A stretch of 64,000 nt of DNA, from positions 48,685-112,684 of IMG/VR virus record IMGVR_UViG_3300036766_000644; one strand, given 5' to 3'. A model generated the notes under the pieces. The model searched no databases. It was not told the DNA's origin and worked only from the letters and a program-made list of their open reading frames with translations. The position numbers and the translations under genes are program-made. This document shows, piece after piece, positions 1 through 20,786 of the stretch (position 1 is the first letter of the stretch; the number at the start of each line of letters is the position of its first letter). This DNA comes from a virus.

Positions 1-1511
1 CCTGACGAGTGAATGGCCTCGATGGTCACCGGGGCGGTAGCTACGAACGAAGCACCGCGACGCTGAACGAAGATACCCTTCTGCCCCTTCCTGGGGCCTG
101 CGGCGGAAGCATCACCGACGGTCTTCTTGAACACCGCGGAGCCTTCAAGCTGGCTCATCGCAACTTGCGTCCCAAGGAGATCGGTAGCATCGATAAGCTC
201 GCCGTTCTCAGTGATGCCGACGTACCGGTCGACGTGGAACTCGTCACGACGGCCATCAACGCCGGGTACGCGGTACCGGGAGTTGTGCCCCTGCATTTGG
301 TTGGCAGGCGCTTCGTTGCTCGGACGGAAACGGATGTTCCTCGCGGGGATGCGCTTACCGTCTGCGTCACCGAACAGATTTACGGGATTCGCGATGACCA
401 GCGCTACCACCGGCTTGCCGTCACACTTCCACAACTTGTACGCCCCAGCATCCTTGGGCTCGTGCAGATCGAGATACGGCTGGATGGCCAGAGCGCGATT
501 CACTCGCTTGCGGTCATCCTTGGCGTAGTACCCCTTCACCTTCACGCCCTGGAACGCAGCGGGGGACTTCGGACCGAAGATGTCCTTGAACTCCGCGGAG
601 GTGGTCTTGTCATCCGCCACGTACAGCGCGCCACCGTGATTCTTGATGCCTCCGCCGTAGTCGGCCAGCTTCAGCGCATCGACGAGCGGCTTCTCGCCGT
701 AGAACCACACCGCCTGCTTCAGCATGGTGGGGCGGGTCTCGAACATCTTCGCCGCGGCCTTCTTGACGCGGTTCGGAGCCTTCGAGAGGAAGTCGAGGAA
801 GGCGAGCTTGGGCTCCGTCTGGTTACGAGCTTCGTCGAAGACGCGACCGGCCTGCTTGACGGCGGCTTCAGGCGTGGAGGGTGAAAGTACATCTCGAGAA
901 CTTTGGCGCGCAATCTGCCCAAAGGCCGAGAGTCCTTGGGCTCCAGGTTTCTTCTTAGCCGCGAGCTGTCCAAGCTCATTTGCAAGACGCCGCTGCCGTA
1001 CATACATGCTATCGGAATGGGGGTTCATCCCCTTCGGGAGGCCAGCTTCCTTCTCCTCCGCGTAGCTGTACCGACCCGTTGTGGGCGGAACAACCGTGTT
1101 GCGGATGTCGACGTCCGTCGGCATGGTCTTGGGCGGGGTCACGCCTTTGCCCATGTCGTTCATCGACTGCTTGTCGAGCTCCTCGAGCCACTCCTTCGAG
1201 AGCGGCATGAAGGCGTTGAGATCCTTGTAGTACAGGATGTCGAGCGGCTTGATTTGGTTGTCCGCCATCACCACCGGGACATAGAGCGTCTGCCCATGGC
1301 GGATGATGACGAAGGCCCCAACACCAGAACCCTCTTCGTGGTCTGTCTCGAGCACCTTGAACGTGACGACGTCCGGCGCCACATTGGGTAGCTTGCTCAA
1401 CAGGACGTTGTACGCCATCTGCGAAAGGCCTTGGTCAAACATGGCCTTTGCCTGATCGCTCGTCCCGCCCTGTTGGCCCATCCCCTGCGTTCTCGGTGAA
1501 ATTGCGGGCAT
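1..1511 (-). CDS. hypothetical protein, 3'-truncated by the window edge (at least 503 aa)
   Basis: I translated the minus strand by hand. An uninterrupted frame runs from ATG at 1509-1511, with GGGAGA 6 nt upstream, to position 1 with no stop. GC3 codon bias is strong. It is absent from the ORF track because it has no in-window stop. The plus-strand ORFs 9..884 and 903..1391 are its antisense. Confidence 0.7.
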   Translation of the reverse strand, partial: MPAISPRTQGMGQQGGTSDQAKAMFDQGLSQMAYNVLLSKLPNVAPDVVTFKVLETDHEEGSGVGAFVIIRHGQTLYVPVVMADNQIKPLDILYYKDLNAFMPLSKEWLEELDKQSMNDMGKGVTPPKTMPTDVDIRNTVVPPTTGRYSYAEEKEAGLPKGMNPHSDSMYVRQRRLANELGQLAAKKKPGAQGLSAFGQIARQSSRDVLSPSTPEAAVKQAGRVFDEARNQTEPKLAFLDFLSKAPNRVKKAAAKMFETRPTMLKQAVWFYGEKPLVDALKLADYGGGIKNHGGALYVADDKTTSAEFKDIFGPKSPAAFQGVKVKGYYAKDDRKRVNRALAIQPYLDLHEPKDAGAYKLWKCDGKPVVALVIANPVNLFGDADGKRIPARNIRFRPSNEAPANQMQGHNSRYRVPGVDGRRDEFHVDRYVGITENGELIDATDLLGTQVAMSQLEGSAVFKKTVGDASAAGPRKGQKGIFVQRRGASFVATAPVTIEAIHSS

Positions 1512-1546
1512 TTCATTCTCCCTAAGGCGTGCAGTGTACCACGTAA

Positions 1547-1590
1547 AGCGAAACGGCCGTCGAGTCCAGTATAGGAACCCGACGGCCGTT
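1547..1590. terminator. stable hairpin downstream of the minus-strand 427-aa gene (perfect 11-bp inverted repeat AACGGCCGTCG / CGACGGCCGTT, no U-run)
   Basis: Inverted repeat read directly. Lies between convergent or consecutive minus-strand genes. There is no T tract, so its function is uncertain. Confidence 0.3.
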
Positions 1591-1617
1591 GTGGGCCCTC
1601 AAACTGGTGAGCCCGGC

Positions 1618-2901
1618 TTAGCTCGCCGAGGCGGAAGAGGCGGCGATCTCACGAATCCGGCCGAGCAGTGCGCTCTCCTTCTTCTGGGGCTCGCCGATTT
1701 CGTCCTTGTGCTCCGGGTCCTTCTTGTACTTGTTGTGCTTCGACTCGTCGCCCTTCATCCCCTCCGAGGCCTTCTTCTCGGTGTGTAGGGTGTTGAGGTA
1801 CTCCTGGCGCTGGTCGTGGTCGTAGCCGATCATCCGGCTGATTGCTGCGACCTTCTCGTCGTCGCCCATCGCGGGGAGATACGGACCGACGTCCTCAGCG
1901 GTCTTCTTGAAGAGGACCACGAACGCCTCTTCCTCGGAGGTCTTCGACGCCTGCATCACCGAGTTGGTGCCCGAGGGGCTGTTCTTCGGTGCGTTGGGGT
2001 GCGGCGTCTCCTTGCCGATACGCGAATCTTGGGGCTCCGAGAAGTTCGCGTTGCCGACGCCAACCAGGTACTTGCCCTGGGGACGGTTCTTGTTGTCCAG
2101 CTGCGCCACGGTGTCGATCTTCGCCGAGTCGGTGAGCTTGTTCTTGTCGGTCCCATCGTGCAGGCCGACCAGCTTGTTGGCGATCTTCTTGAGCTCGGCG
2201 TCCAGGCTGCCTTGCTTCGAAGCGGAGCCCGCGTCCTGCGACACAGAGTTGCCGCCGGAAGGAGAATTCGCCGGGCCCTTGGGGTGCTTGCTCATGTCCC
2301 CGATGAGGCCGCCGATGGTGTCGAGCTCAGTCTTTCCGACGCCGTGGTGGTACGCACCCTCGGGGCGCTGCTTCTTGTCGAGCTCGGCGACCTCGCCAAC
2401 GGCTGCAGCCTGCGAAGCGTCATTGCCCTTGTCGCCGCCGTGAATCAGCGCGCCACTGGTGGCCTGCTTCACTTCCGAAGCCGCCTTGTCCATGCACGCG
2501 ACGGCGCTCTCGGCGGCCACGGTCTGGTAGTCAGACTCGGCGGCGGTCTTGGTGAGATCCATCGACATCTTGGCTGCCTCGGGTGACGGGGGCGGCATTC
2601 CTGCGGCCTCTGACCCCTCGGGGTGCATCTCCGGGGGCATCCCGCCAGCACCGGGAGCTGCGGCACCGGCCTGCTCCATCAGAGCGTGTGCGATCTCCAT
2701 GAGCTTCTGCGCAACGGCGGAAAGCTCCTCGGGGGAGTGCCCACCTTCACCGGACATCTCCGGCATTCCTTCTGCGGCGGGCGAATCCGCGACAGCATCA
2801 GCCGCCTCGTCCATCGCTTCCTTGGAAGGAAAGGCAACGATCCCATTACGGACCAGTTCGTATGCTACCCCACGTGCTGCAGCGCGCTTGAAGAGACCCA
2901 T
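1618..2901 (-). CDS. hypothetical protein with internal ~50-aa degenerate tandem repeats (427 aa)
   Basis: Long ORF. The motifs (E/Q)LD(K/N)K(Q/N)RP(E/Q)G..Y..GVG and P.NSPSG.NSV.Q each occur twice. Possible virion or internal protein. Confidence 0.75.
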   Translation of the reverse strand: MGLFKRAAARGVAYELVRNGIVAFPSKEAMDEAADAVADSPAAEGMPEMSGEGGHSPEELSAVAQKLMEIAHALMEQAGAAAPGAGGMPPEMHPEGSEAAGMPPPSPEAAKMSMDLTKTAAESDYQTVAAESAVACMDKAASEVKQATSGALIHGGDKGNDASQAAAVGEVAELDKKQRPEGAYHHGVGKTELDTIGGLIGDMSKHPKGPANSPSGGNSVSQDAGSASKQGSLDAELKKIANKLVGLHDGTDKNKLTDSAKIDTVAQLDNKNRPQGKYLVGVGNANFSEPQDSRIGKETPHPNAPKNSPSGTNSVMQASKTSEEEAFVVLFKKTAEDVGPYLPAMGDDEKVAAISRMIGYDHDQRQEYLNTLHTEKKASEGMKGDESKHNKYKKDPEHKDEIGEPQKKESALLGRIREIAASSASAS

Positions 2902-3002
2902 GAAGTTTTTCTCCTTGTTACGTTGGCCGGAGTGTAGGCCAGAGGTTGTGGTTTTACAATTGAATCAGTCGGCACGCGCCGCTGAGGACAACATAGGAAA
3001 TA

Positions 3003-3452
3003 TCACTCATCCGACGCAACAGGCGCTGTCCGAGAAGAATCGTACGCCTTACCAACCGCCTGCCCAACCGGCGCCAAAAGCATTCCGCCGCCAATCTGTC
3101 CTGCCATTCCGAGAGGGCCTCCTAGCAGAGATCCTGCGGAGCGGCCAAGCAAATCCCCGACGAGCTCTCCACCACCGGTATCAGGATTAGCGCGGGATTG
3201 AAGAAAAGAACCCATGATGGGCCAGGCCAACGCCGCGGCTATTGCACCGGGGCTCCGAGGGAGCGTCTTGGTGATGAGCCCCTTGCTGGGGTGGAAAAGC
3301 TGCCCTTTTTGAAACTGCTTCAGCGCTTCACGCGGCTGTCCGAGCCCTTGGCGCTGTACCTCTTCGAGGTAGTCGTCCCAGCCGCCAGCGCACTTCACAC
3401 CGAAGGAATGCAGAGCCGCACGGACACCTGCGGATTGCGCCAGGGGTAGCAT
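3003..3452 (-). CDS. hypothetical protein, Gly-rich C-terminus (149 aa)
   Basis: ORF whose ATG overlaps the stop of the upstream beta' C-half gene (TGATG). Confidence 0.55.
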   Translation of the reverse strand: MLPLAQSAGVRAALHSFGVKCAGGWDDYLEEVQRQGLGQPREALKQFQKGQLFHPSKGLITKTLPRSPGAIAAALAWPIMGSFLQSRANPDTGGGELVGDLLGRSAGSLLGGPLGMAGQIGGGMLLAPVGQAVGKAYDSSRTAPVASDE

Positions 3453-5251
3453 CAGTACCTTCCCTCAGGGCCCATACCGAATTCGGACCCATATGCGTAA
3501 GCCGAGACTGGGTGGACGCTGTGGCGATCCGATACTGCGCCAGTGCGAGCCCCCTGTAGGAGACTGTCCTTCAAGTAGCGGTGGGCGAGTCGCGCCATCC
3601 AATCGGGGTGCAGAAGAGGATTGCGGGCCATCGGGCGCATCATGAACTCAACCCGAGGGAGATTCGTCGCAACACTGACGTGGGTGACGCCGTGTGATTT
3701 CAACGTCGCAAGTATCGACGCCGAAAGGGGGGTGCCCGCGGTGAAGTGAAGAACTTCTTTGCCCAGCACGCCACCAGCGGCCTGCGCCAGGGGGACTTCG
3801 TGGCTGCTCCTCCCCGCTGCGTCGCGGTACACGTCGTACGGGAGTACTTCACCTTTTAGGAGTTCAGGATGTGCGTCGGAGTGATCGAGAACCTTGATGT
3901 GGTTGAGATCTGCGCGGGCGACCAGTTCAAGGTGCCGCTTATCGACATTGATTCCTTGACCGGAATAGATGTCATGAAGTGTGTCGACGAGATATTGCCG
4001 CCCCACTCCGAAACCTTTGTGTTGGATGAGCTCATCTGGCTTTGGGATCCCTTCGGAGAGGACATCACCGGCCTCCACCTTCTGGCCCACGGTTACGCGA
4101 GGCATCAAATTCGGGCCTACGTAGTGTTGTACCGTATCTACGTAGATATAGGTACCGCCGTGAGACGCGGGCGCAATCTTTGTGACCGCCCCCGTATGTT
4201 CCGCCAAAGCGGCCTTGTTGATGAAGCTCTGCGGAACCTCGAGGAGCTGTCGGATCCCAGGCATCCCCTGAAGCTTCGATGAGCTCCCCTTCAAGGACCG
4301 CCCACCGTGCTTAGCGCCTAGCGCCATTTGCGTCAGCGGCTCTGAGATCGACTGCGCGGCACGGACACCGACGTTGATACCGATGGCATGCGGGCGCCCA
4401 CGCTCATCTAGGCCCTGGCACTTCCGGCAGATCCCCTCAGGGGCGGCGCAGGACATCGGAGACCGTACGTAGACCGTCTTGACGTTGTCCCGTAGTTTGG
4501 ACGCTACGGCCTTGGTCACCAGGTCGTTGCGGTGGAGCCCCGCCTGGTCCTTCGACAGGTATCGATCGACGATGTTTCCGTCGGAGCTTGCTAGGGCGAT
4601 ACCGTTCAGCGTCCCGCAGTCATCCTGGGTGATGACCAACGGGTACATGTTGTTGGTCATGATCTTCAACATGTCGCCCGGCTCAGAGATGGAAATGGCC
4701 GCCTGTACCGTGGCGTGGCGAACGTCGTTACCCGCGGTCCAGTAGTCCGCGGCGCTGAGCCCTTCGGCATAGGACTTGTGCACCAGCCACGGATGAATTG
4801 CGCCGTGACTCGTCGTGACCGCCACCGGGGAGGTGACCGTCTTCATCAGCTGTTCCATGTTTCCACGGGCTCCGGAGAGAGCCATCGCGGTCATGGTGCC
4901 GGGGTGCTGGGCTGTCTGAGCTTTGAGCGCCGCTTGGGCGTCGAGGATGATCTTCTCTCGTGCGTCCCTAGTAGTAGCGTTCTTCAGCGCCGCGATGGCG
5001 GGGAGCATGATCTTGTCGCGGGCGTGGTACATGGGTGTGATGTCGTCGATTCCGACGGACACCCCCTCCAGCGTCGAGATGTCGTCGCCAAGAGCTTTCA
5101 GCTTGCTGACGATGTCAACGTACGCCGTAGGGTCCTCGTTGGCGAGGTCCAACATCTTCTGCGTGAGCTCCTTCTTGCCCATCGCGCCAGTGATGTGTTG
5201 GTGCGCGGGGAGAAGATCGTTGATCAGGTATTTCCCCAGCGTCTGAGCCAT
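3452..5251 (-). CDS. RNA polymerase beta' subunit, C-terminal half (split beta' homolog, 599 aa)
   Basis: SGARGNMEQLMKTV resembles SGARGS..Q. GVRAAQSISEPLTQMALGAKH resembles the AAQSIGEPGTQLTMRTFH trigger-loop and bridge region. SPMSCAAPEGICRKCQG resembles C..GVCAHCYG. Confidence 0.85.
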   Translation of the reverse strand: MAQTLGKYLINDLLPAHQHITGAMGKKELTQKMLDLANEDPTAYVDIVSKLKALGDDISTLEGVSVGIDDITPMYHARDKIMLPAIAALKNATTRDAREKIILDAQAALKAQTAQHPGTMTAMALSGARGNMEQLMKTVTSPVAVTTSHGAIHPWLVHKSYAEGLSAADYWTAGNDVRHATVQAAISISEPGDMLKIMTNNMYPLVITQDDCGTLNGIALASSDGNIVDRYLSKDQAGLHRNDLVTKAVASKLRDNVKTVYVRSPMSCAAPEGICRKCQGLDERGRPHAIGINVGVRAAQSISEPLTQMALGAKHGGRSLKGSSSKLQGMPGIRQLLEVPQSFINKAALAEHTGAVTKIAPASHGGTYIYVDTVQHYVGPNLMPRVTVGQKVEAGDVLSEGIPKPDELIQHKGFGVGRQYLVDTLHDIYSGQGINVDKRHLELVARADLNHIKVLDHSDAHPELLKGEVLPYDVYRDAAGRSSHEVPLAQAAGGVLGKEVLHFTAGTPLSASILATLKSHGVTHVSVATNLPRVEFMMRPMARNPLLHPDWMARLAHRYLKDSLLQGARTGAVSDRHSVHPVSAYAYGSEFGMGPEGRY

Positions 5252-5254
5252 GAG

Positions 5255-5857
5255 TTAGCCGCCGAGGCCGTTATCCGGGGTACCGCCACCACCCTGGAGC
5301 TTGCTCATGGCGTAGGCCATCCCAATCCCCGGGAGTTGTCCCCCGAGGGCGTGACCCCATGTTCCTGCGTGCGCCGGGTCGCCTTTCATTCCACCCATCA
5401 CGTTACTGAGGAAACCGCCATTCGCCGGAGCGGCCGGAGGAGCCGCGGCGCCACCAGCGGCAGGCGCAGCGGCGCCTGCGAGATGACCCTTCACGCCGTC
5501 CCAGATCTGTTGCCCTAGTCCGGGTTGACCCGCCGGTGCGCCAGCAGCGGGAGGAGCGCCAGCAGCGGGAGGAGCGCCAGCAGGAGGTGCGGCGGGAAGT
5601 TGAGGCTTCTTCGTCACACCAACCCCCGCAGTCTGAGGAGCGGCGGCCCCAGCCGCGGCGCCAGCTGCAGGGACGGCGGCCTGCGGCACGGGACCGACGG
5701 CCGGAGCAGCACCTTTAAGCGGCGCAGCCCCAATCGGGGATCCTGTTCGTGCGCTACGGAACACATTCACATTCGTCGGAGGCTTGAACGCCCCCGCCTT
5801 ACAGAACGTACCCCACGCAGCGTTGGACCCCTCGGCGTATGCAAAGTCACTGATCAT
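5255..5857 (-). CDS. low-complexity Ala/Pro/Gly-rich protein (200 aa), probably disordered
   Basis: ORF inside the RNAP operon. Its N-terminus MISDFAYAEG resembles that of the next gene upstream (MMMNLAYAEG). Confidence 0.5.
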   Translation of the reverse strand: MISDFAYAEGSNAAWGTFCKAGAFKPPTNVNVFRSARTGSPIGAAPLKGAAPAVGPVPQAAVPAAGAAAGAAAPQTAGVGVTKKPQLPAAPPAGAPPAAGAPPAAGAPAGQPGLGQQIWDGVKGHLAGAAAPAAGGAAAPPAAPANGGFLSNVMGGMKGDPAHAGTWGHALGGQLPGIGMAYAMSKLQGGGGTPDNGLGG

Positions 5858-6144
5858 ATTGCAGCTCCATCGCGGCCAACGCCGGAGTAGTCGTAAGAAG
5901 AGGCGCCAACGCCCCAGGGAGTAGTCACGCCGCCCCAGCGAACCGGATTACCGAAGCGCTTCTTTTTCTCGTCTTGTGAAGGTGCCTCGTCCTCAAGTTC
6001 GGAGAGGTGCTTGGCGAGACGTTCCGCAGATACACTTAGGTCGCCTTTCGGCATCCCGCGGTGGAAGCTATCGGAAGCGGTCCTGAGACCAAACTCTTCC
6101 TCGGCGCGGGCTTTACCTTCTGCGTAGGCGAGATTCATCATCAA
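5854..6144 (-). CDS. hypothetical small protein (96 aa)
   Basis: ORF with a 4-nt overlap onto the downstream gene. Shares the N-terminal AYAEG motif with its neighbour. Confidence 0.5.
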   Translation of the reverse strand: MMMNLAYAEGKARAEEEFGLRTASDSFHRGMPKGDLSVSAERLAKHLSELEDEAPSQDEKKKRFGNPVRWGGVTTPWGVGASSYDYSGVGRDGAAI

Positions 6145-6286
6145 GGGGAGCTTAGGTTACTTGTTGGAGCTGGACAATCGATTCGGTTTGACAGAGTTCT
6201 CTTTCCAGCCCACCAGAGCCTCGCGCCGCTTAAGCGCTTCCTTCAGCTTCTTCGCGAGATCCTCCGACGCCTGTTGTTGCCCTTCT

Positions 6287-6928
6287 TCAAACGCCCGCTT
6301 GAGGAGTGGTTCCACCGGCGCCTCCTTCGCAGAACATCATCCGGCGTAGATCGTCTGCGTGCTGTTGGTCAGTGAGCGCCATCTGCTCGAGCATCACTTT
6401 GATGGAGAGGTTCTCCCCCGCCATGAGCGATAGGTTACGCAGCTCTTGGATGATCTGCTTCTCAGCCTGAAGCAGGACCATGAAAATCTGGTGGAGGTCG
6501 TTGATGTCCGGGATGGTGCTCACCTTAGGCGTGGGCTCACCACCTAGAGCCGTGATCTTCATCGTGAGGTGGTAGGCGTCTTCACGCTCTTCCCCTGCGT
6601 GCTCCTTGAAGTGGTCGTAGATGACGTCTCGGAAGTGAGCCCGGATCCGGTCACCGTAGTTGATGTACATCATCATCGTGGTGTACTTGAGCTTGAGCAG
6701 CTTCAGGCACTGCGCCACGATCTTTTCCTGAGGGACGGCGAACAGGCCTTCCTCGGGGGAGACGGCCAAGGGATGAACACCCTCAGATGCGGTGGGCTGG
6801 GGGATGGGAACTTCAGCTCCGGCGGCGTCAGACATCTGCGCGTCAGGGGATTGTACTTGCTCCGTAGGAACCTCAATGGCTCCGTCTGACGCGATCTTGT
6901 AGCGCTGCGTGTATACCTTGGTCGTCAC
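6287..6928 (-). CDS. hypothetical protein, possibly ferritin-like four-helix bundle (213 aa)
   Basis: ORF overlapping the beta-beta' stop by 4 nt. Periodic E/H/Q residues (…EHAGEEREDAYH…EKQIIQELRN…LEQMALTDQQHADDLRRM) resemble ferritin or rubrerythrin-like metal ligands. This is a weak call. Confidence 0.55.
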   Translation of the reverse strand: MTTKVYTQRYKIASDGAIEVPTEQVQSPDAQMSDAAGAEVPIPQPTASEGVHPLAVSPEEGLFAVPQEKIVAQCLKLLKLKYTTMMMYINYGDRIRAHFRDVIYDHFKEHAGEEREDAYHLTMKITALGGEPTPKVSTIPDINDLHQIFMVLLQAEKQIIQELRNLSLMAGENLSIKVMLEQMALTDQQHADDLRRMMFCEGGAGGTTPQAGV

Positions 6929-9900
6929 GGGCCCACCTCTACTTTGGTGTTGAGATTTATTTCACCACGCTTGTACGCCGCGTAAGCGTCTGCCTTCGTC
7001 TTGAAGTGGTGCGTTTTGGCGTTGTCCGACCCTACCGCCTTCGTTGCCAAGTGTATCCCTAGCATAGCCTCCATGCGGGGAGCGACCATCAGGCTGTTCT
7101 TCTCTCGGTCGGCGAACAGGAGGTTGGAGAGGGTCAGCCCCTTCACCTCCTGCACAGCGCCTGGGAGGACGGGGACGTGAATCTGGAACGTGTCCCCGTC
7201 GTAGTCGGCGTTCATCCCAAGCTCGATGAAGGGGTTCACCCGAATCGTCTTACCGGCGACAGGGACGGGGTTTGCGCCAACGAAGCCGTAGCGGTGCAGC
7301 GTAGGGGCCCGATTCACCATGACGGGGCGTTCCTTGATCTCCACCATCAAGGCTGTGAGAGCGGCAGGATGCTTCTCCTCTACCATCTCCTTCGAACGAA
7401 CGGCGTTGAACCCCTGGCGCACGAGGCGGGCGATGACGAACTTGCCGTACATCCCCCACAACATGTCGATCGGCAGGCCAATCTCGTCCATGCCCAGAGC
7501 GCCATCGGGAGCGATGGTCCCGCGGCCAGAGACGTCCTGCTGGCGCTTCATGATCTTTTTCTGGAAGAAGCTGCTCTTCGGCGTTGTCTTCCCGGTGATG
7601 TGCTCGAGGAAGCCCTTCACATTGCGCTTCAGGAGCTTCGGGTTGTCCGACTCATGCGTCCCGATGACGGCCCCCACGGCGTTGAACAGATTCTGCCGAA
7701 GCTTGGCGTGTTCATCGGGTGGGAGGATCGGTGACTCAACCTGCCGCTGCAGCGCTTTGTTGTGCAGCATGGCGGCGGCGTAGAGGTAGTTCGCGTCACC
7801 CACGACGAGCTCTGAACCGCCCTTCCCCGCTTGCACTGGGCGCATGATGGGCGGGAGGACCGGGAGCTTGGTCAGCACGTAGGCGTCGCCAGGCTTGAGC
7901 CCCTGCTTGTTCAGCGCGGAGAGAAACTTGAGATGTTTCACCGCGTCGTCCAACTTGACACCACTGCTCTTTTTGATCGATTCTCGAATAGTCTGCATCT
8001 GGCCAGGAACGTCGATGGCGTTCAACTTCTTCTTCACTGCGTCGGCCCCGTGCTGGAACCGGAACAGGTCGAAGTCTTTCGCCGTCATTCCTAGAAGTCG
8101 CCGAGCTGGCTCTGCGAACACAGGGTTTACGACGGACTCGGCCAAGTCGATGTGGCTCCAGCGGGTGCCGTCGGTACCTCCGGTAACCGCCGGGTCGAAC
8201 AACCCACCACGCTCCGCGGCTAGATCTTTGGCGCGGACAAGCTTCTCGTTTTGGATGGCCCCAGAGGACATTCGCATGATGTCCTTGTCCGTGAGAGGCG
8301 ACAGCGTGCTGAGACTCCCTCGAGTGTCCACCTTGACCCCGGCCCCGTGCAGCATGCCGATGAACTTGTCGTAGGCGAACGTCGTCTTCAGCGGAGGCAG
8401 GGGTAGCCCGAGCTGGATGGCCTTCCAGAACTCGTCGTTCTTCTGGCTCTTGATCGCAGCCGTCTCGCGAAGAACGTTGCGGGCGTTGTGCGCTACGAGG
8501 GCGTTGAACTCCATCTTACCGACGGCCTTCGCACCTTCGTCGCCGCCTTTGATGGGCTGCTGATTTACGTCGTACGCCCCAGTACCGCGAGCCGCGAAGT
8601 TGGTCTCGGTGGTCTTGAACAGGCGGAGCACGTACTGCGGCCCGACGAGGATGCCGGGGATCTTCTTGCCCGATACCGGGTCGAACACCGTCTCCTTGTC
8701 CTTGACCCCGTGCTCCTTCATGAGGTCCTTTGTCCACTGCACGTTGTCCCGCCCGGAGAAGTTAGCCACAGCGATCGGTTTACCGATCTTCCTGGCCACT
8801 TTCGCGACACACGTCTCGAGGACTTGAGCCGGGTTGATGCGGGAGATGATGCCTGCGGACGTGTACAGCACGTCCAGGGGTTTACCGCCCTCGTCCTGTA
8901 GCATCTGATGGTCAGGGATGATGCGGGAGACGACGCCCTTGTTTCCGTGGCGTCCCGTGAGCTTGTCGCCTACGCGCATGGGCTCCTTGGTACGCACTGT
9001 GACGAGGACCCGTTTGTCGGTGACGTGAACGTCTGTGACGTCCCCCTCGAAGTCGTGGTCCCAGGTGCGGACGAGCTCACGGTACGGGTTAACGAGCGTC
9101 TTCTTGAAGTTGGCCAGCAGAGTGTCCGACGCGGACAGCTTTCCCTTGGTAACCCCGGCGATCAGGATGTCATGCGGCATGACCTTCATGCCTTTGCGCA
9201 CGACGCCGTTCGCGTCGAGCTTGCGGTACTGGTCCGCGGTGTACTTCGGACCGTAGTACTGGCGGTGCATTTCACGCCCCACGACGGCGTCCCGCTCAAC
9301 CTCCAAAACCTCCTTGTACATGTGCTCCGACGTCAACTTGTCGGCGGCTCCCTCGGAGATGACGACAGCGTCATTCGAGTTCAGCCCGTAGTACGGGATG
9401 TACCCGATGGTCATGTTGCGCCCGAGCGCGAAAGCACCATCGCGGGTGAAGTTGGAATCGGCGAGGCGCTGATTCGCTTCGACGTGATCCCCGGGCTTAA
9501 CGAGGATGTCGTGGTGAAGGTACGTCTTGGATGCGAAGGGAAAGTTGTCCTCGTAGGGTACGCGGATGAGATCTGCTTCGGCTGCGGCCTTCTCGCGCTG
9601 ACGCTCGGAGAGGTAGTCGTCCTGGAACTCGTCCCACGTGTACTCTTCGAGAGACCCAAAGCCCCACTCGGGACCGTGTTTCTGGTACGCCTCCTTCGCA
9701 GCGTCCTTGGAGTCGAAGCCGACCATGCACTTGTCTTCATCGTGCGACCCGTCGCGCTTCTTTTGGCGAACGACGTACACGTGATCGAAGGTACCGTCTT
9801 CCTTCAGGTAGATGTCCACCGTCTCGCCATCATCCCCAACCGTCTTGGGGATGTGCCCGTAGGCGAGAGACATCTTCTTCTCCCACTTCTTGCCCTCAAG

Positions 9901-11736
9901 GGAGACGCCAGAACGAATGTCCCCAGGCTCGAGCTCGAGCTTGAAACACAAGCCCTTGATCGTCTTTTGGCGCTTGACGGCGCCGCCCCTCTTTTCGAAG
10001 GAGTTCTTTTCGAAGACGAAATCCTCGGCGTGCTTCTTCCCGCTTGGGTCGATGTAGATGTACTGCCCGTCGATCCGAACTACCTTCCCCGAAACAGGGG
10101 CGAAAGGAAGCTCCATCAACGCCAGGACCTTCTCCCAGCTCGAGTGCTCCTTACCTTCAGAGTCGCGAATGCCGGATTGAACGAGAGGCGCCTCGCGATG
10201 TACGAGGGGCAGCGCCTGCGTCATGGACTTGCCTCCCATGATGCCGCGGTTCCCCTGCACGGACTCCAAGAAGGGGACAAGGTTTGTCGCCGGGGAGTAG
10301 AGGTGAGAAGCGTCAACGAGGGCGTGCGTGCACGTCGATGCCGGAACCATTTCGACGGTTCCTTTGCGCATCGCAGAGATCATCCCAGACGTCTTCTGGT
10401 TCGGGAACGAGATTACGGCGTTGCCCATCTCCGCCGCGGACAGGAGCGTGTTCTTCCCAGTCTTGAGATCCTTCACCGGGGCGTAGAGGTTGCCGCGCTC
10501 ATCCCTGTGAGCGTACATCGCGGTGCGAATGTCGATGCCCGCTCGGAAAGTCTCCGACGTCCGCACCGGGTCAAGAAGCCCGAAGTGGCTTGAGTGAATC
10601 GTCCGAGCTTCCGCCGGGATTGCCCGCTCATTGGCGATGCCGCCTTCGCCCAGCGAGGTCACGCGAGCTGCGTGGTCGATTGCCTCCATGGGGTTGATGT
10701 GCGTCGGGATCGAGCTCAGCTGAGATCCTGTGAGGAAGCTTCGAATGCCTGCGGAGAACGGAGACGCGGGGAGGATCGTCCGGAGCTCCGTCTTGTGCGT
10801 TGCCCGGCCCTTCACCTTGCTGGCGAGAGCTCGTGCATCCAGGGTGATGCGCTCTTTGATGAAGTCGTCAACGGAGTGGTACGTCTTGAACCGAAGAGCG
10901 TCGCGGTCGTCGGTGTCCTCATTGTTCTTGTAGACGTTGAGGAGGCGCTTCGAAGCAGTCAGCAGGGCGAGGGGCGTCACCGACGCGAACTCGTGCCCGA
11001 GTGTTTCTTTAGTCACCCCAGGGTCCATCGCTGTCGTCGAGTACGCCGCTTTCACAGCCTCCAGCTGTGTCTCAGGGTTCGTCGCCGTTCGCTTGGCAGG
11101 ATGGACCAGTTTCTCGTAAAGCTTGGCGAGGTGTTTGTCGTGCTTTCCGTCGAATTCCGCCTCATTCTTTCCCGCGACATCAGAGCCCCACGCCGTAGCG
11201 ATCTCCCCGTGAGCCGTACCGAGCTTACGGAGTACTGAGTAAAGAGGAATCGCGGTGGTCCCGTACTCGATGTACGGGTGACCCTTTGTAGGGTCCATGG
11301 ACAAGCGGAAGTTCATGCCCTTCGACAAGTTGAAGGCTGCCTCGAGCTCTTCGTTTCCGCGACGCCGAGTGTACACACCTGGCTTGAGGCGCAGCTGGTT
11401 CGAGACGTTGTACTCGTTGCCGTCCAGGATGAAGGTGTGGCGCCCTGTGAAGTAGGGGAGGTTCAGCAGCGTGAAGTTCTTGACCTTCTCGAGCTCCTTG
11501 CCCGCTGCGTCACGAAGGACGACGGTGCCTTTGACCTGCTCGAACAAGGAGCCGCCGCTGAGCAGGGCGTTCTTCTGATCCTTCGGACCGAAGTCTTTCT
11601 CGTGAACCTTTAGATCTGTGAGCTCGATACGCTTATCGCGTAGCGCCAAGGGGAAAGCCGTCTTGAGCGCCTCCAGCGCCTTCGCCCGAATGTTGGTTCG
11701 GCGAGACTCCGGGTCTGTCATCACAGGGGTCAGCAT
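6925..11736 (-). CDS. fused RNA polymerase beta + beta' N-terminal (catalytic) half, 1603 aa
   Basis: Beta hallmarks GRHGNKGVVSRIIP and GKMEFNALVAHNA (cf. GEMEVWALEAYGAA). Beta' hallmarks follow in the same frame: VLPPIMRPV, NRAPTLHRYGFVGANPV and the NADYDGD Mg-binding loop (cf. NADFDGD). Highly diverged from cellular enzymes. Confidence 0.9.
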   Translation of the reverse strand: MLTPVMTDPESRRTNIRAKALEALKTAFPLALRDKRIELTDLKVHEKDFGPKDQKNALLSGGSLFEQVKGTVVLRDAAGKELEKVKNFTLLNLPYFTGRHTFILDGNEYNVSNQLRLKPGVYTRRRGNEELEAAFNLSKGMNFRLSMDPTKGHPYIEYGTTAIPLYSVLRKLGTAHGEIATAWGSDVAGKNEAEFDGKHDKHLAKLYEKLVHPAKRTATNPETQLEAVKAAYSTTAMDPGVTKETLGHEFASVTPLALLTASKRLLNVYKNNEDTDDRDALRFKTYHSVDDFIKERITLDARALASKVKGRATHKTELRTILPASPFSAGIRSFLTGSQLSSIPTHINPMEAIDHAARVTSLGEGGIANERAIPAEARTIHSSHFGLLDPVRTSETFRAGIDIRTAMYAHRDERGNLYAPVKDLKTGKNTLLSAAEMGNAVISFPNQKTSGMISAMRKGTVEMVPASTCTHALVDASHLYSPATNLVPFLESVQGNRGIMGGKSMTQALPLVHREAPLVQSGIRDSEGKEHSSWEKVLALMELPFAPVSGKVVRIDGQYIYIDPSGKKHAEDFVFEKNSFEKRGGAVKRQKTIKGLCFKLELEPGDIRSGVSLEGKKWEKKMSLAYGHIPKTVGDDGETVDIYLKEDGTFDHVYVVRQKKRDGSHDEDKCMVGFDSKDAAKEAYQKHGPEWGFGSLEEYTWDEFQDDYLSERQREKAAAEADLIRVPYEDNFPFASKTYLHHDILVKPGDHVEANQRLADSNFTRDGAFALGRNMTIGYIPYYGLNSNDAVVISEGAADKLTSEHMYKEVLEVERDAVVGREMHRQYYGPKYTADQYRKLDANGVVRKGMKVMPHDILIAGVTKGKLSASDTLLANFKKTLVNPYRELVRTWDHDFEGDVTDVHVTDKRVLVTVRTKEPMRVGDKLTGRHGNKGVVSRIIPDHQMLQDEGGKPLDVLYTSAGIISRINPAQVLETCVAKVARKIGKPIAVANFSGRDNVQWTKDLMKEHGVKDKETVFDPVSGKKIPGILVGPQYVLRLFKTTETNFAARGTGAYDVNQQPIKGGDEGAKAVGKMEFNALVAHNARNVLRETAAIKSQKNDEFWKAIQLGLPLPPLKTTFAYDKFIGMLHGAGVKVDTRGSLSTLSPLTDKDIMRMSSGAIQNEKLVRAKDLAAERGGLFDPAVTGGTDGTRWSHIDLAESVVNPVFAEPARRLLGMTAKDFDLFRFQHGADAVKKKLNAIDVPGQMQTIRESIKKSSGVKLDDAVKHLKFLSALNKQGLKPGDAYVLTKLPVLPPIMRPVQAGKGGSELVVGDANYLYAAAMLHNKALQRQVESPILPPDEHAKLRQNLFNAVGAVIGTHESDNPKLLKRNVKGFLEHITGKTTPKSSFFQKKIMKRQQDVSGRGTIAPDGALGMDEIGLPIDMLWGMYGKFVIARLVRQGFNAVRSKEMVEEKHPAALTALMVEIKERPVMVNRAPTLHRYGFVGANPVPVAGKTIRVNPFIELGMNADYDGDTFQIHVPVLPGAVQEVKGLTLSNLLFADREKNSLMVAPRMEAMLGIHLATKAVGSDNAKTHHFKTKADAYAAYKRGEINLNTKVEVGP

Positions 11737-11819
11737 GTCCGTAAGTATAGCTCCCTTTTTGGTATCAGTAGCTGAGTCCCCACTTAGGGCTCAACTCGCA
11801 GTATCACCGGAGGGTGAAC

Positions 11820-12614
11820 ATGGGAACGAGTAAGAAAAAGAAGACGACGCGAAAAGTACTTCACGCAGGGCACGAGGTCGCAAATCACCTCGTCAACATC
11901 CGCGACGTGGGTGACGCTACGCTACCCGTAATCAAGCTGGCGTACGTGTGCATCAACGACGATCCGAAGGCGTGGAGCAAGCGAAGCGGTGGGATGATAA
12001 GCGGGGCGATGCCCCGGAACGCAAAGATCGCAGCGAAGCTGTGCGCAGGAGCCCGCTGCTTCTTTTGTGGTCGGCCGCAGGAACCGAGCCCGGCGAAGAC
12101 GTTGCTCGACTTCCATCCCGAGTACCCGCTGTGCGAGTGCTTGATGCCACTGCGACAGCTGGCCTACGACTACATCCCGGACTGGCACACGCCGGAGGGG
12201 AACAAGCTGCTCGTGGAGAAGGCGAACGCCGGGGCGTTGAATCGGAACGACCCGGTGTACCAGTACATGTGTGACTGCGGAGAAGGTCCGTACGTCGTAC
12301 ACGTTGGGCGCGTGGCTCATGCGCTCACGATGTTCAAGAGGCACCGGAGGTTGACGCGGTGCGATGCGTGTTACCGTAAGATGGCGCAGCAGAAGTTGTT
12401 GCAGCGGCGCCAGTTCGAAGCACGGAAGGACCCGCTGAAGGTGGCGGTGCAGGAGCTCATCGAGAAGCCGAAGACCGGCCCGGAGGGGAAGATCACTCGG
12501 GATCGGAAGAACAAGAAAAACAAGCCCGTCGAGGGAGCACATCCCGTGTTCATCCCGACTGTGCTGCAACCCCTGTCGGCGCTCGAGGCAGCGCCTGAGA
12601 CCACCCCCACGTGA
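11820..12614 (+). CDS. hypothetical Cys-rich protein with multiple CxxC pairs (265 aa)
   Basis: ORF divergent from the RNAP operon. GGAGGG lies 5 nt before ATG 11820. The track begins it at GTG 11814. Confidence 0.65.
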   Translation: MGTSKKKKTTRKVLHAGHEVANHLVNIRDVGDATLPVIKLAYVCINDDPKAWSKRSGGMISGAMPRNAKIAAKLCAGARCFFCGRPQEPSPAKTLLDFHPEYPLCECLMPLRQLAYDYIPDWHTPEGNKLLVEKANAGALNRNDPVYQYMCDCGEGPYVVHVGRVAHALTMFKRHRRLTRCDACYRKMAQQKLLQRRQFEARKDPLKVAVQELIEKPKTGPEGKITRDRKNKKNKPVEGAHPVFIPTVLQPLSALEAAPETTPT

Positions 12615-12670
12615 ACATTCGCTACGTGACCTGGATCCCCTTCTGGGACTTCAGAAGGTAACCAGGTTGG

Positions 12671-12698
12671 CTTCCCCGTGAGAAACTTCACGGGGAAG
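12671..12698. terminator. hairpin between convergent genes (CTTCCCCGTGA-gaaac-TTCACGGGGAAG, 11-bp perfect stem)
   Basis: Inverted repeat read directly. Lies between the end of 11820..12614 (+) and the end of 12710..13207 (-). Confidence 0.5.
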
Positions 12699-12709
12699 TC
12701 TGGTGGTGG

Positions 12710-13207
12710 CTAGAGATCAGGCTCAGGAGACGTACCGTCAACCCCGACCTTGGTTGCTTTTTTTGCTTTGGCCTTCTTCTCGAACCACCGCACGGACATC
12801 AGGAGACTGCCGTCCTTTTGGGGGTACTCCTGCTCTGACCCAAAAATGTGCTTACCGGAGAGAGTATCGTTGATCGTGGTCTCGTACTCCTCCTTCTTCG
12901 TGTGCGGGCACAGGTAGTCCCCGACATCCGGGAGAGACGCGGCTCCTGATGCCAGGTCCGCCCCGCACCTGGCGCAGGCATCCCAGGGGCGGAAGATGAG
13001 GAACACGTCACGGTGGATCTTGAAGTCGAACGCGGTTACCCCCGCGATACCGTCCTCTGACGTTTCGACCATTCGGTGCGACGGGTTCGACTCCAGCGGG
13101 AAACCGTCGGGAAGATCCTTGCCCAGCGACTCGAAGTCCGCGGGCGTACGCATCGCTGAGTTGAGGATCGACGCGAAGTCAGACCCGGCTTCTGTTTTTA
13201 GGGGCAT
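12710..13207 (-). CDS. hypothetical protein (165 aa)
   Basis: ORF with GC3 bias, downstream of the 575-aa gene. Confidence 0.6.
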   Translation of the reverse strand: MPLKTEAGSDFASILNSAMRTPADFESLGKDLPDGFPLESNPSHRMVETSEDGIAGVTAFDFKIHRDVFLIFRPWDACARCGADLASGAASLPDVGDYLCPHTKKEEYETTINDTLSGKHIFGSEQEYPQKDGSLLMSVRWFEKKAKAKKATKVGVDGTSPEPDL

Positions 13208-13216
13208 CGTGCGTCC

Positions 13217-14944
13217 TTACATCGGCTGCGGTTGGCCAGCTTGCGCTTTCGCTTGGGCACCTTGTTGGTTCTGCATGTCCTCGAGCCGCTGAACGACCAC
13301 GGCGTACATGACGGCGTCCTCTGCTTGGAGACTGTGCATCTGTGACCGCCGAGACCCCGGGTCGAGGCCCATGAGCTGTTGTACGATCTGGTCCGCTTGC
13401 GCGATGACCGCCTGCTGATCGTAGTTGAGCCCTGACGCCTGCTGCGCCTGGTTCTGCACCTGCTGCGCCAGGTTGTTCTGGAGCTTCTTGACCTCGTTCT
13501 GTACGCGCATCTGGTGTCGTGTCTCGTCGAGCGTCTCTTGAAGGCGCTTCTCCCGCTCCTCGTCGAGATCGATGTCGAGCTTCTCCATTACGGTGGTCAT
13601 CGACACGTACTGCTGCCCCTGCTGACCGGTGGCCATGTTGATGAGCATCTGCTTGGACTCGGTATCGTCCACCATCTGAAGCGGCGTGAGCTTGGCCTCC
13701 AGTTTCTCCCAACCGAGGAACTTCGCCAGGCTGTCTGCGTACCACTGCAGCAGATCGTTCATGTCATCGGCGTGGCCTTGTGTCTGGTTCTGGATCAGGC
13801 GGAGCGTGGCCTCCATGCCCGCCTTGGTCAGACCGCCGTACAGGAACTCCTGCGGGATGCCAAGCGCCGCCATGATGCTCTTCTCGGCTTCCTGGAGCTC
13901 GCCGATGGTGAGCATCGCACGCCCGTCGCCGCCCAAGTTCGATACGCCAAGAGCAACAGGCGCCATCATGATGTGCAGAGGGTCGCGACGCCAACGACGG
14001 ATGTTGGTCTTCATCTCGTCCTGCCAGCGGGCGAGTGAGATCATCTGGGTGAAGTCCTGCTGGCCGTTCTGTGCCGGGTGCAGGATGCGCATCGGCACGA
14101 CATGCTCCAGCGCGATGGCTTCGTTCGCCTTGCGCAGGACCAGGGTGTAGAGGAACAGCTTGATGGTCGAGGCGAGAGGAGGGAAGCCCCACTGCTGGTC
14201 GATGCCTGATGGGCTTGCGACCTTGATGTGGAAGAGGGCGTCCTTCTCGAAGCGGAAGGTCTTGTTGTCGCGGATGTTCTCGAGGAACTCCATCGGCATG
14301 GAGTTGATGAGGTGCTTCGACCCCGACTTAACCTGGTCTTTGATGTCCTGCGGGATGTTGTAGTAGTACACCGACTGACCCGTGATCGGGTTGTAGTCGA
14401 TATCCATCAGCTTCGGGTCCCAGCGGATGATGTGCACCTTGCTGGCGGCCAGGATCTTCCGGTCAACCACCGTGCCCTGCACCATCTTCTTGCACTTGTT
14501 GCAGTGGTAGGTGAACGTCAGCTTCTTAAGCTCGAACTTGTAGTCGACGTGATTGATCGACGTCATCGTATGACAAGTCGGGCATTTGAGGCTGCGTACG
14601 AAGGGCTTGTAGATCGAGGTGAAGTGGTTACCGTAGACGTGCTTGTCCAGGGACGCCATCAACAGAGCGGACTTGATCTTTAGCGTCTTCTCGAAGAGGC
14701 GTCGGTAGTTCCGCCGCAGCGCTTCGTTCGACGTGCCGTACTCGATGTTGGTGACGACGAGCTCACCGAATTTACGCAGCGCGGCGTAGACGTGGGCGCT
14801 ATTGTAAAGTAAATATTCGCACCATTTAAAGAGGTCCTTGAGCTTTCGTGGGACGAAGCCCGTGAGAAAGTCGAAGGCCGGGTTGGGGTGTGACGCAGCC
14901 CTGTCGAAGGCCGACATCGAATCTGTGTTCGGATTATCCGCCAT
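13217..14944 (-). CDS. hypothetical protein with CPTC…CNKC zinc ribbon and Gln-rich coiled-coil C-terminus (575 aa). A portal-like role is speculative.
   Basis: Long ORF overlapping the HNH gene by 11 nt. I recognised no catalytic motif. Confidence 0.75.
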   Translation of the reverse strand: MADNPNTDSMSAFDRAASHPNPAFDFLTGFVPRKLKDLFKWCEYLLYNSAHVYAALRKFGELVVTNIEYGTSNEALRRNYRRLFEKTLKIKSALLMASLDKHVYGNHFTSIYKPFVRSLKCPTCHTMTSINHVDYKFELKKLTFTYHCNKCKKMVQGTVVDRKILAASKVHIIRWDPKLMDIDYNPITGQSVYYYNIPQDIKDQVKSGSKHLINSMPMEFLENIRDNKTFRFEKDALFHIKVASPSGIDQQWGFPPLASTIKLFLYTLVLRKANEAIALEHVVPMRILHPAQNGQQDFTQMISLARWQDEMKTNIRRWRRDPLHIMMAPVALGVSNLGGDGRAMLTIGELQEAEKSIMAALGIPQEFLYGGLTKAGMEATLRLIQNQTQGHADDMNDLLQWYADSLAKFLGWEKLEAKLTPLQMVDDTESKQMLINMATGQQGQQYVSMTTVMEKLDIDLDEEREKRLQETLDETRHQMRVQNEVKKLQNNLAQQVQNQAQQASGLNYDQQAVIAQADQIVQQLMGLDPGSRRSQMHSLQAEDAVMYAVVVQRLEDMQNQQGAQAKAQAGQPQPM

Positions 14945-15389
14945 TTGCGATCCTCAAGCGTTCTTGACGGCCTTGGTGTGAACGTGCCGCGGTTCGGATG
15001 CGATGACAGTTAGAGCAGACGACTTCGCACTTGGCCGCCTCCGCGAGTATAGCTTTTTCCGAAAATTTGGAAGACATCATATTCGAGATCGCAGACCGCT
15101 TCTTAAACTGTGGTAGATGGTCGAAGTCCATCACGCAGGGAGGGTACGGTACGCCACAATCGGCGCACGGTCTAGCCTTGAGCCCCTCCACCAGCGCCCG
15201 ATTTCGTTTAGCTGTATCGATGGCGTACTGCGCAAGCCGAGCAGCATTTTTGTCGGCCCACTTACGGTACTCTTTCTTGGAGCATTTTTTACAGTAGCTG
15301 TGGCGGTACCCTTTGGCACTCAGCACGAAAAACTTGAGCAGTCTGCATTTTCCGCAAAGCGAGCAGACCTTGTTCGGCCCATAGTCCAT
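14934..15389 (-). CDS. HNH endonuclease (151 aa)
   Basis: N-terminal CxxC…CxxC finger plus CADCG…DFDHL…CEVVCSNCH, an HNH/His-Me finger signature. Confidence 0.75.
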   Translation of the reverse strand: MDYGPNKVCSLCGKCRLLKFFVLSAKGYRHSYCKKCSKKEYRKWADKNAARLAQYAIDTAKRNRALVEGLKARPCADCGVPYPPCVMDFDHLPQFKKRSAISNMMSSKFSEKAILAEAAKCEVVCSNCHRIRTAARSHQGRQERLRIANGG

Positions 15390-20646: not shown

Positions 20647-20786
20647 ACCCTCTCGTACTCAAAGTCATCGGCGTCCTGGCGGCGTACCGAAAGTGGTATG
20701 CCGCCGGGATGACGGATAAAGAGATCTCCCAGAAGATCCGCGAGACGTACCCGGCACAAGCTCGGCCGTTCCGCCCTACTCGGTAA
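20643..20786 (+). CDS. hypothetical small protein (47 aa)
   Basis: GTGA overlap with the parB-like stop. Low confidence. Confidence 0.3.
   Translation: MNPLVLKVIGVLAAYRKWYAAGMTDKEISQKIRETYPAQARPFRPTR

Follow-up and report, generated by a model that had tools for sequence, protein, structure and literature searches.

A beta-beta'N fusion and a separate beta' C-terminal gene, divided by a variable gene cassette, in an uncultured relative of Salmonella phage Arash

A stretch of viral DNA of 64,000 nucleotides (nt), positions 48,685 to 112,684 of the IMG/VR record IMGVR_UViG_3300036766_000644 and hereafter called the window, carries a multisubunit-type RNA polymerase (RNAP) in two genes that are separated by a cassette of small genes. 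The upstream gene encodes beta fused to the N-terminal part of beta' (beta-beta'N), and the downstream gene encodes the C-terminal part of beta' (beta'C). An earlier note, made from the letters of this DNA alone, had proposed that beta' is split into two genes of one operon and that the small proteins between them are accessory subunits of the polymerase. The first of these proposals stands, as the two genes belong to one co-directional block with beta'C 1.67 kb downstream (1673 nt from the stop of the upstream gene to the start of beta'C). The second fares less well and is weighed below. The block consists of the following open reading frames (ORFs) and domains, given in their 5' to 3' order on the minus strand with their lengths in amino acids (aa).

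6925-11736, minus strand: beta-beta'N fusion, 1603 aa
9619-9978, minus strand: InPase domain in the beta part, aa 587-706, PF18823
6287-6928, minus strand: p213, predicted ferritin-like four-helix bundle
6157-6315, minus strand: p52, small helical ORF
5854-6144, minus strand: p96, small and mostly disordered
5255-5857, minus strand: p200, Ala/Pro/Gly-rich, low-complexity
3452-5251, minus strand: beta'C, 599 aa, Pfam RNA_pol_Rpb1_5

The two polymerase genes and the break in beta'

The 599-aa ORF at 3452-5251 matched the Pfam family RNA_pol_Rpb1_5 (PF04998) with an E value of 2.7e-20 and 73.4 bits against a cut-off of 28.5, and it matched bacterial beta' chains in PDB with an E value of 1e-36. 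It shares 33-36% identity with gp216 of Salmonella phage Arash and gp264 of Vibrio phage D69. The SGARG motif, from which the ORF had already been recognized as the C-terminal part of beta', is found at aa 126-130 (nt 4862-4876), and the bridge-helix segment follows at aa 174-208 (nt 4628-4732). The protein has exactly four Cys residues, C212, C268, C275, and C278 (nt 4418-4624), in a pattern that we take, from E. coli beta', to be zinc site II of beta'. These residues had been described as a C-terminal cluster, which is incorrect, as they are located in the middle of the protein. The segment AAQSISEPLTQMALGAKH at aa 298-315 (nt 4307-4360), quoted earlier by its AAQSISEP stretch as trigger-loop or bridge-like, is the first trigger-loop helix by its likeness to E. 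coli AAQSIGEPGTQLTMRTFH; the trigger-loop half of that description is kept, and the bridge-helix half is not. All four Cys residues and many of the motif residues are invariant in five relatives. The order of these elements, with SGARG and region F followed by the bridge helix, the four-Cys site, and the trigger loop, is that of the C-terminal module of beta'. A partner polypeptide with the catalytic loop and with beta is present in the ORF at 6925-11736 (NADYDGD, Rpb2_3, Rpb2_6, Rpb1_1, and Rpb1_2). On its sequence and motif order, the ORF at 3452-5251 is the C-terminal module of RNAP beta'.

The upstream ORF at 6925-11736 was taken by the earlier note as the N-terminal part of beta', which it does contain, but it is not beta'N alone. 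Its Pfam matches are Rpb2_3 and Rpb2_6 (1.7e-49) for beta, followed by Rpb1_1 and Rpb1_2 (4e-17) for beta'N, and the catalytic motif NADYDGD is located at aa 1509-1515 (nt 7192-7212). By these domain matches, the ORF is a complete beta joined in frame to a beta'N that ends just past the active-site barrel. The beta'N part (6925-8286) has no Cys residue at all, and GGLFDPAVTGGTDGTRWSHIDLAE occupies the place of the N-terminal zinc ribbon of bacterial beta'; for these two reasons, the zinc ribbon appears to have been deleted.

Relatives of the locus were collected from IMG/VR with a profile built from five beta'C sequences, which gave 65 loci (cited here by L numbers; identity 28-79%), most of them from contigs of 170-195 kb. 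The loci were fetched with flanks of ±10 kb, and statements on absence refer to these flanks rather than to whole genomes. Thirty-six of the loci form the clade of this phage, in which beta'C identity falls to 44%.

The position of the break was located by alignment. The end of beta'N aligns to residue 550 of E. coli beta' and to residues 554-556 of cyanobacterial gamma subunits that are 624-625 aa long (8syi_D and 8h3v_E). On the other side, residue 3 of beta'C falls opposite approximately residue 590 in a beta' chain of 1432 aa, and residue 47 is paired with residue 38 of the cyanobacterial beta' chain 8gzg_Z; the beta'C start corresponds to about residue 573 in E. coli. For AR9 gp154, the C-terminal beta' piece of a jumbo phage, residue 116 aligns to residue 37 of beta'C. 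These alignments strongly support a break at about residues 551-572 of E. coli beta', in the linker that directly follows the active-site double-psi barrel and precedes the bridge helix. They also strongly support the view that this is the same inter-domain region that is split in the beta' of cyanobacteria, plastids, and jumbo phages. A split of beta' after the double-psi barrel has been described in both jumbo-phage RNAPs (PMC7598289).

Two of the relatives, L060 (5582-11782) and L064 (5507-11746), encode the whole polymerase as a single unsplit beta-beta' ORF of 2066 and 2079 aa, respectively. L060 reads through the break as FNLNGRETTVGRAII, where the window has NLNTKVEVGP and a stop codon at the end of beta'N and MAQTLGKYLI at the start of beta'C. 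Measured on the unsplit L060 protein, the end of beta'N and the start of beta'C are within 3-4 residues of each other, and no sequence has been lost. With nothing lost and no space left for the halves of an intein, the two chains must come together non-covalently to form the enzyme. That the phage has its own multisubunit-type RNAP, made of two polypeptides (the 1603-aa beta-beta'N and the 599-aa beta'C), is strongly supported. The single-chain form is likely to be ancestral, with the split produced by gene fission.

The beta part of the fusion holds an insertion of 120 aa, a type I inorganic pyrophosphatase-like (InPase) domain that matched PF18823 with an E value of 7.1e-31 at aa 587-706. 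This insertion is clear in L003-L013, gives weak matches in L025 and L032, and is absent from Arash and D69. The InPase family was described from polyvalent proteins of phages, which are thought to be packaged and injected, and its proposed role is the removal of pyrophosphate in favor of early transcription or replication; the available part of that paper does not mention a fusion of InPase to a multisubunit RNAP (Iyer et al. 2017, PMC5512222). Mobile elements are active at this locus, and the same gene has also taken up inteins in at least one lineage. In L005, a relative with 76-80% identity, the beta-beta'N gene contains three in-frame, stop-free insertions of approximately 340, 370, and 500 aa, at about 2788-3803, 5257-6365, and 6754-8240, with Hint and LAGLIDADG-like features. 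The third of these inteins falls inside NADYDGD, and the gene in the window is free of inteins.

The intervening genes and their surroundings

The source of the window is, with strong support, an uncultured phage of about 170-190 kb that is a relative of Salmonella phage Arash. The best cultured relatives by protein are Arash and the Vibrio phages D69, D181, and D148 (33-36% identity). A megablast search of the first 12 kb of the window against phage records gave no DNA-level match, and a scan of bacterial and archaeal genomes found cellular beta' only, at 24-29% identity, with no prophage and no clue to the host. Positions 1-15000 carry a single co-directional gene row on the minus strand, which runs from the portal homologue through the ORF at 3-1511. 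The features around the RNAP block, together with the sigma-like gene outside the row, are as follows.

20776-21609, minus strand: sigma-70-family protein, 277 aa, Sigma70_r2 and Sigma70_r4
14934-15389, minus strand: HNH endonuclease gene, PHROG E 4e-29, adjoining the portal gene
13217-14944, minus strand: portal-protein homologue, located upstream of the RNAP block; shares 29% identity over 576 aa with Arash gp204, which is annotated as portal
12710-13207, minus strand: p165, member of the co-directional row
11814-12614, plus strand: Cys-rich 266-aa ORF between p165 and the beta-beta'N start, with conserved position and orientation in 10 relatives
3003-3452, minus strand: p149, Gly-zipper-rich small protein directly after beta'C
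1618-2901, minus strand: p427, next after p149, conserved, no annotated homologue
3-1511, minus strand: homologue of gp218, which is an abundant structural protein of the Arash virion; cut at the window end; tblastn match to L001 15139-15531, E 3e-15

A search of the PHROG families gave no match for the Cys-rich ORF on the plus strand.

Between the two RNAP genes, the earlier note had counted three ORFs of 213, 96, and 200 aa. These exist, and a fourth of 52 aa at 6157-6315 had been overlooked, so the block consists of four co-directional, abutting ORFs of 213, 52, 96, and 200 aa. At every junction, the ORFs overlap or are separated by no more than 12 nt. The stop codon of beta-beta'N overlaps the start of p213 (GTGA), p96 overlaps p200 (ATGA), and the p200 stop is 3 nt before the ATG of beta'C (TAActcATG). 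No terminator-like hairpin was found on the minus strand between 3452 and 6925. The ratio of nonsynonymous to synonymous substitution rates (dN/dS) of all the small ORFs against close relatives was 0.07-0.38, and that of beta'C was about 0.10; these values are rough, as dS is saturated. Because of these ratios, the small ORFs are regarded as real coding genes under purifying selection.

The space between the two RNAP genes varies widely across the 65 loci, from 37 bp to more than 10 kb. It is 37 bp in L060 and 112 bp in L064, about 1 kb in D69, 0.7-4.2 kb in the clade of the window, and 4-9 kb in Arash-like loci. At least six loci have a distance of more than 10 kb, with no beta-beta'N in the fetched flank. 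The content of the gap differs in the same way, with no genes in L060 and L064, two tiny genes in D69, and nine mostly opposite-strand genes in Arash. The Arash gap holds opposite-strand Bro-N/KilA-like genes and small Gly-rich proteins, and when profiles of the gp210 and gp213 families of Arash were compared by hhalign with those of p96, p149, p200, and p213, no homology was seen (probability at most 5%). In L006, the gap holds an HNH-like endonuclease ORF (8448-9074) that is different from the HNH gene of the window at 14934-15389. Within the clade, the order and orientation of p213, of p96 or its counterpart f125, and of the Gly-rich genes are kept down to 44% beta'C identity. The third-position GC content of p96, p200, and p149 is 0.60 and that of their neighbors is 0.73-0.84; the cause may be their low-complexity composition or a history unlike that of the neighbors.

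p213 is the best defined of the intervening proteins. It matched the Pfam family Ferritin (PF00210) with an E value of 2.2e-9 and 37.8 bits (cut-off 24.5), and all 84 of its database homologues have a Ferritin domain. Ferritins were the only PDB matches of its profile, with 2qqy at E 1e-11. The AlphaFold2 model of p213 has a pLDDT of 82 overall and above 90 over the bundle, with four helices at residues 67-199. In Foldseek, the model matched 2qqy with a TMt of 0.90 and a root-mean-square deviation of 1.3 A, and the mini-bacterioferritin 9qq4 also gave a TM-score of 0.90. On this model, a ferritin-like fold is confidently predicted for p213. The N-terminal 65 aa are disordered and hold the conserved segment ASEGxHPLAVSPEEGLFAVPQE. 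When p213 was compared with the canonical set of di-iron ligands (E, ExxH, E, ExxH, with the ligand positions of 2qqy taken from the canonical motif), four of the six were found to be kept (E114, E156, D187, and H190). In helix A, an invariant Lys81 stands in place of the Glu, and in helix B, the position of the His is variable and this ligand is lost. p213 would be a metal-binding or Dps-like auxiliary protein. In the window and in the 25 loci that have it, p213 always immediately follows beta-beta'N; 11 of the 36 clade loci lack it. Phage Dps- and ferritin-like genes are known auxiliaries (PMC8008677). In BFVD, ferritin-like domains are also seen as fusions with prohead proteases and with large phage proteins of several domains.

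The remaining three proteins of the cassette, p52, p96, and p200, are largely disordered and have no known homologues of defined function. The p52 gene has a GTG start after an AGGAGG Shine-Dalgarno sequence inside the end of p213, whose 3' end it overlaps by 29 nt. It is confined to the window and five loci (L003-L007), where the protein is 63-77% identical and dN/dS is about 0.2. p96 has an N-terminal helix (AYAEGKARAEEEFGLR), an AERLAK motif, and the C-terminal segment RFGNPVRWG...SGVGRDGAAI, and its start is likelier to be the ATG at 6141 or 6138. Its 35 database homologues are all hypothetical proteins, its family members have no Pfam domain, and its profile had no PDB match below an E value of 0.2. 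The AlphaFold2 model is of low confidence (pLDDT 57) and has one N-terminal helix. The dN/dS of p96 is 0.10-0.16. By hidden Markov model (HMM), p96 is present in the window and 13 loci, and in 22 other loci the gap is filled by the family f125, which hhalign relates to p96 with a probability of 74% and an E value of 3e-5. f125 is probably a distant homologue of p96. Of the 36 clade loci, 35 have one or the other in the gap, and among the cassette proteins only this type is near-universal within the clade. p200 has an N-terminal motif, a Gly-rich C-terminal segment, and a dN/dS of 0.38; its HMM homologues were found in L003, L004, and L007 only, and divergent analogous ORFs are located in L005, L006, and L010.

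The genes after beta'C resemble those before it. Paralogues of p149 lie directly upstream of beta'C in 10 loci, in addition to p149 downstream. p427, found in the window and 36 loci, has two internal repeats (K/NxRPxGxY..GVG...HPxxPxNSPSGxNSVxQ) and a Lys-rich C-terminal tail; none of its 143 database homologues is annotated, and there was no PDB match. An N-terminal motif of about 20 residues, roughly aYxxGxxxAhxxFGh[KR]xA, is common to p96, p149, and p52 and so occurs on both sides of beta'C. It was evaluated by leaving out one family at a time and scoring that family against 2792 decoy ORF N-termini. The scores were 17.4 bits for p96, 10.7 for p149, and 8.5 for p52, and the best decoy reached 7.3. 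A scan of the whole window for other ORFs with this N-terminal motif found none. Reading AYAE/G within it as a prohead-protease site or a T4-like capsid-targeting sequence was considered and dropped, as the Glu is not conserved across the families.

The statement of the earlier note that no recognizable alpha or omega is encoded in the window is borne out, with no match to the alpha or omega Pfam families in the flanking ORFs or in 54 other ORFs of the window. Searches of p213, p52, p96, and p200 against Pfam and PHROG likewise gave no match to alpha (RNA_pol_A_bac, RNA_pol_L) or omega (Rpb6). p96 and p213 showed no similarity to solved RNAP subunits in a PDB search that covered these two and not p52 or p200. 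There was also no co-conservation with the polymerase family, as none of p213, p52, p96, and p200 was found within ±10 kb in the Arash-type, D69-type, or unsplit loci. A more conventional partner may be encoded away from the RNAP block. The ORF at 20776-21609 matched Sigma70_r2 (1.9e-8) and Sigma70_r4 (3.2e-9), both above the cut-offs, and this predicted sigma-70-family protein is a candidate specificity factor. Its similarity to Arash gp10 is slight (E 0.045), and orthology of the two is not claimed.

What the cassette and the enzyme may be

The data are best joined in one reading, to which we assign a probability of roughly 0.6. The phage has a two-chain split RNAP, the break is a permissive site, and the small genes encode lineage-specific late or virion proteins that are not core subunits. 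There is strong support for the view that both the break and the slot behind beta'C are permissive, with different genes collected in different lineages. Because none of the small proteins is conserved with the polymerase across the family, they are not considered core subunits. Nor are they considered specific to the break, given that p149 paralogues occur both before and after beta'C and that genes on the two sides of the break have the N-terminal motif in common. In the proposed mechanism, the cassette of p213, p52, p96, and p200 would be co-transcribed and translationally coupled with the RNAP genes inside a head or virion module. The small proteins would be lineage-specific late products that are made with the virion RNAP and probably packaged alongside it. 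The N-terminal helix motif of p52, p96, and p149, and more weakly of p200 and p427, might serve as a common docking element, and none of these proteins would be a universal subunit of the catalytic core.

The enzyme itself is probably a virion-type phage RNAP, as has been shown for Arash. This suggestion comes from the presence of the Arash homologues in virions, from the gp218-like neighbor, and from the derivation of InPase from packaged proteins. The available part of the Arash virion proteome gives gp206 as the most-detected protein and gp216 as the fifth, and it also includes gp218, the gap-encoded gp210 and gp213, and the sigma factor gp10 (Yousefi et al. 2023, PMC10585845). The presence of the window enzyme in virions is also supported, circumstantially, by its InPase insertion.

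Several points weigh against this reading. Packaging is extrapolated from Arash, whose proteins are 33-37% identical, and the virion evidence from Arash is not transferable gene by gene, as the gap genes are unrelated. The coincidence with the cyanobacterial break may not be residue-exact; the breaks fall within about 70 residues of each other, and the alignments do not reach the ends of the chains. The direction of fission is drawn from the relatives and not from a tree, and a re-fusion in L060 and L064 is the alternative. The link between p96 and f125 consists of one hhalign match of 74% probability, and a p96-like gene in 35 of 36 clade loci is also what would be expected of an RNAP-associated factor. 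The motif is short, with p200 marginal (20 decoys score as high) and p427 weak (76 decoys).

The strongest of the other explanations, although unlikely, is a form of the proposal in the earlier note. It holds that the small proteins, most plausibly p96 and/or p213, are accessory RNAP subunits that replace the alpha/omega platform or clamp the two beta' pieces together. The tight operon with its overlapping stop and start codons agrees with it, as do the position of p96 or f125 in the gap in 35 of 36 clade loci, the position of p213 right after beta-beta'N in 24 of 36, and the strong purifying selection on both. Phage multisubunit RNAPs lack alpha and omega, and that of phiKZ has a non-homologous fifth subunit (PMC7598289). 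The disorder of p96 on its own is also what is often seen in partner-dependent proteins. The unsplit, D69-type, and Arash-type relatives, however, lack all the small proteins in the fetched flanks, motif-bearing and paralogous proteins are also found after beta'C, and the Pfam and PHROG searches, together with the PDB searches of p96 and p213, turned up nothing akin to alpha, omega, or a known RNAP structure. p213 is absent from 11 of 36 clade loci and has confident homology to an unrelated function, ferritin (PF00210; 2qqy, E 1e-11, TM 0.90), which the earlier note had named among the grounds for refuting its proposal. The comparison of synteny across 65 relatives, in which the gap ranges from nothing to more than 10 kb and the small genes are not conserved, speaks against analogues of omega, alpha, or gp68 as well.

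It is rather improbable that the intervening genes are unrelated cargo, that is, morons or auxiliaries such as an oxidative-stress ferritin, that came to a permissive site, are functionally independent of RNAP and virion, and use a strong late operon for their expression. This would fit the extreme variability of the slot, with its opposite-strand Bro-N/KilA-like genes in Arash and HNH gene in L006, as well as the third-position GC of 0.60 in p96, p200, and p149 against 0.73-0.84. Phage Dps- and ferritin-like genes have also been interpreted as auxiliaries of host physiology (PMC8008677). Gene order and orientation are nevertheless kept across the clade down to 44% beta'C identity, and the N-terminal motif and paralogy tie the cassette to genes after beta'C. 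The retention of only four of six di-iron ligands in p213 argues against a plain ferroxidase.

A more elaborate and quite improbable idea is that the ferritin-like protein, the p96-type protein, and the motif-bearing Gly-rich proteins are a trio that forms an assembly and packaging kit. The motif would dock RNAP into the procapsid or the proteins to each other, p96 and/or p213 would replace the alpha/omega platform that holds beta'C on beta-beta'N, and the pyrophosphatase would drive early transcription after injection. It is hardly credible that the split is only apparent and that the beta' parts are rejoined through trans-splicing, recoding, or a split intein. Relatives often have inteins in this gene (three in L005, one of them in NADYDGD) and unsplit versions exist, but the 3-4 residue colinearity with L060 leaves no space for intein halves, the junction has no Cys/Ser/Thr nucleophile context or HN motif, four selected ORFs with their own starts lie between the genes, and gp206 and gp216 are separate entries in the available part of the Arash virion proteome (PMC10585845).

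The preferred reading, a two-chain RNAP with lineage-specific late proteins at a permissive break, bears on the wider question of how phage multisubunit RNAPs hold together and enter the virion. These enzymes work without alpha and omega, which every cellular enzyme uses for assembly. One lineage provides a natural series of single-chain, two-chain split, and intein- or pyrophosphatase-bearing versions. The series marks the site after the active-site barrel as a repeatedly used permissive break point. It also offers simple constructs, fused or split and with or without the small proteins, for determining the requirements of assembly.

Comparison with known systems

The closest known systems are Arash, D69, D181, and D148, which have the same two-gene RNAP with a beta-beta'N of about 1525-1600 aa and a beta'C of about 600 aa at 33-37% identity. 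In Arash and D69, beta-beta'N is about 1525 aa, beta'C is about 606 aa, and the genes are located just after the portal gene. The backbone shared with the window consists of the portal, a small gene, beta-beta'N, beta'C, and the gp218-like virion protein. Arash and D69 differ in having no InPase domain and in their unrelated gap genes, nine in Arash and two tiny ones in D69. The proteins were annotated as beta and beta' by Yousefi et al. (2023, PMC10585845), and the fusion-plus-split architecture is not discussed in the available part of that paper.

The mReC lineage likewise comes from metagenomic tailed phages with cellular-type beta and beta' (Weinheimer and Aylward 2020, PMC7481178). It was considered as the same group and rejected, as the contigs checked have separate genes of about 1370 and 1010 aa and no fusion-plus-split arrangement.

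p213 has the same four-helix fold as 2qqy, 9qq4, and the phage Dps- and ferritin-like proteins. It differs from them by Lys81, the lost helix B His, the extra disordered N terminus of 65 aa, and its fixed place after an RNAP gene.

In cyanobacteria and plastids (rpoC1 for gamma and rpoC2 for beta') and in the jumbo phages phiKZ and AR9, the break likewise follows the double-psi barrel and precedes region F and the bridge helix. Cyanobacterial gamma continues for about 70 residues beyond the aligned end, and AR9 gp154 is longer by about 80 residues at its N terminus. Unlike in these systems, beta'N in the window is covalently fused to beta and is not a free gamma or N-terminal beta' subunit. 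Cyanobacterial rpoC1 and rpoC2 are adjacent, whereas the RNAP genes of the window are separated by the cassette. In the jumbo phages, beta is split too, whereas it is intact in the window; these RNAPs lack alpha and omega, and phiKZ has its non-homologous fifth subunit (PMC7598289).

Fusion of the two large subunits also has precedents. Natural beta-beta' fusions are known from the rpoBC genes of Helicobacter and Wolbachia. In these fusions and in the single-chain RNAP of crAss-like phages, the C terminus of beta is joined to the N terminus of beta', as in the window. The window fusion differs in that it stops after the active-site barrel of beta', and L060 and L064 represent the complete single-chain form. 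The window enzyme, in contrast to that of crAss-like phages, aligns clearly with bacterial beta and beta'. The split itself is solid, and it varies a known theme, with beta joined to beta'N and the break in beta' placed after the barrel.

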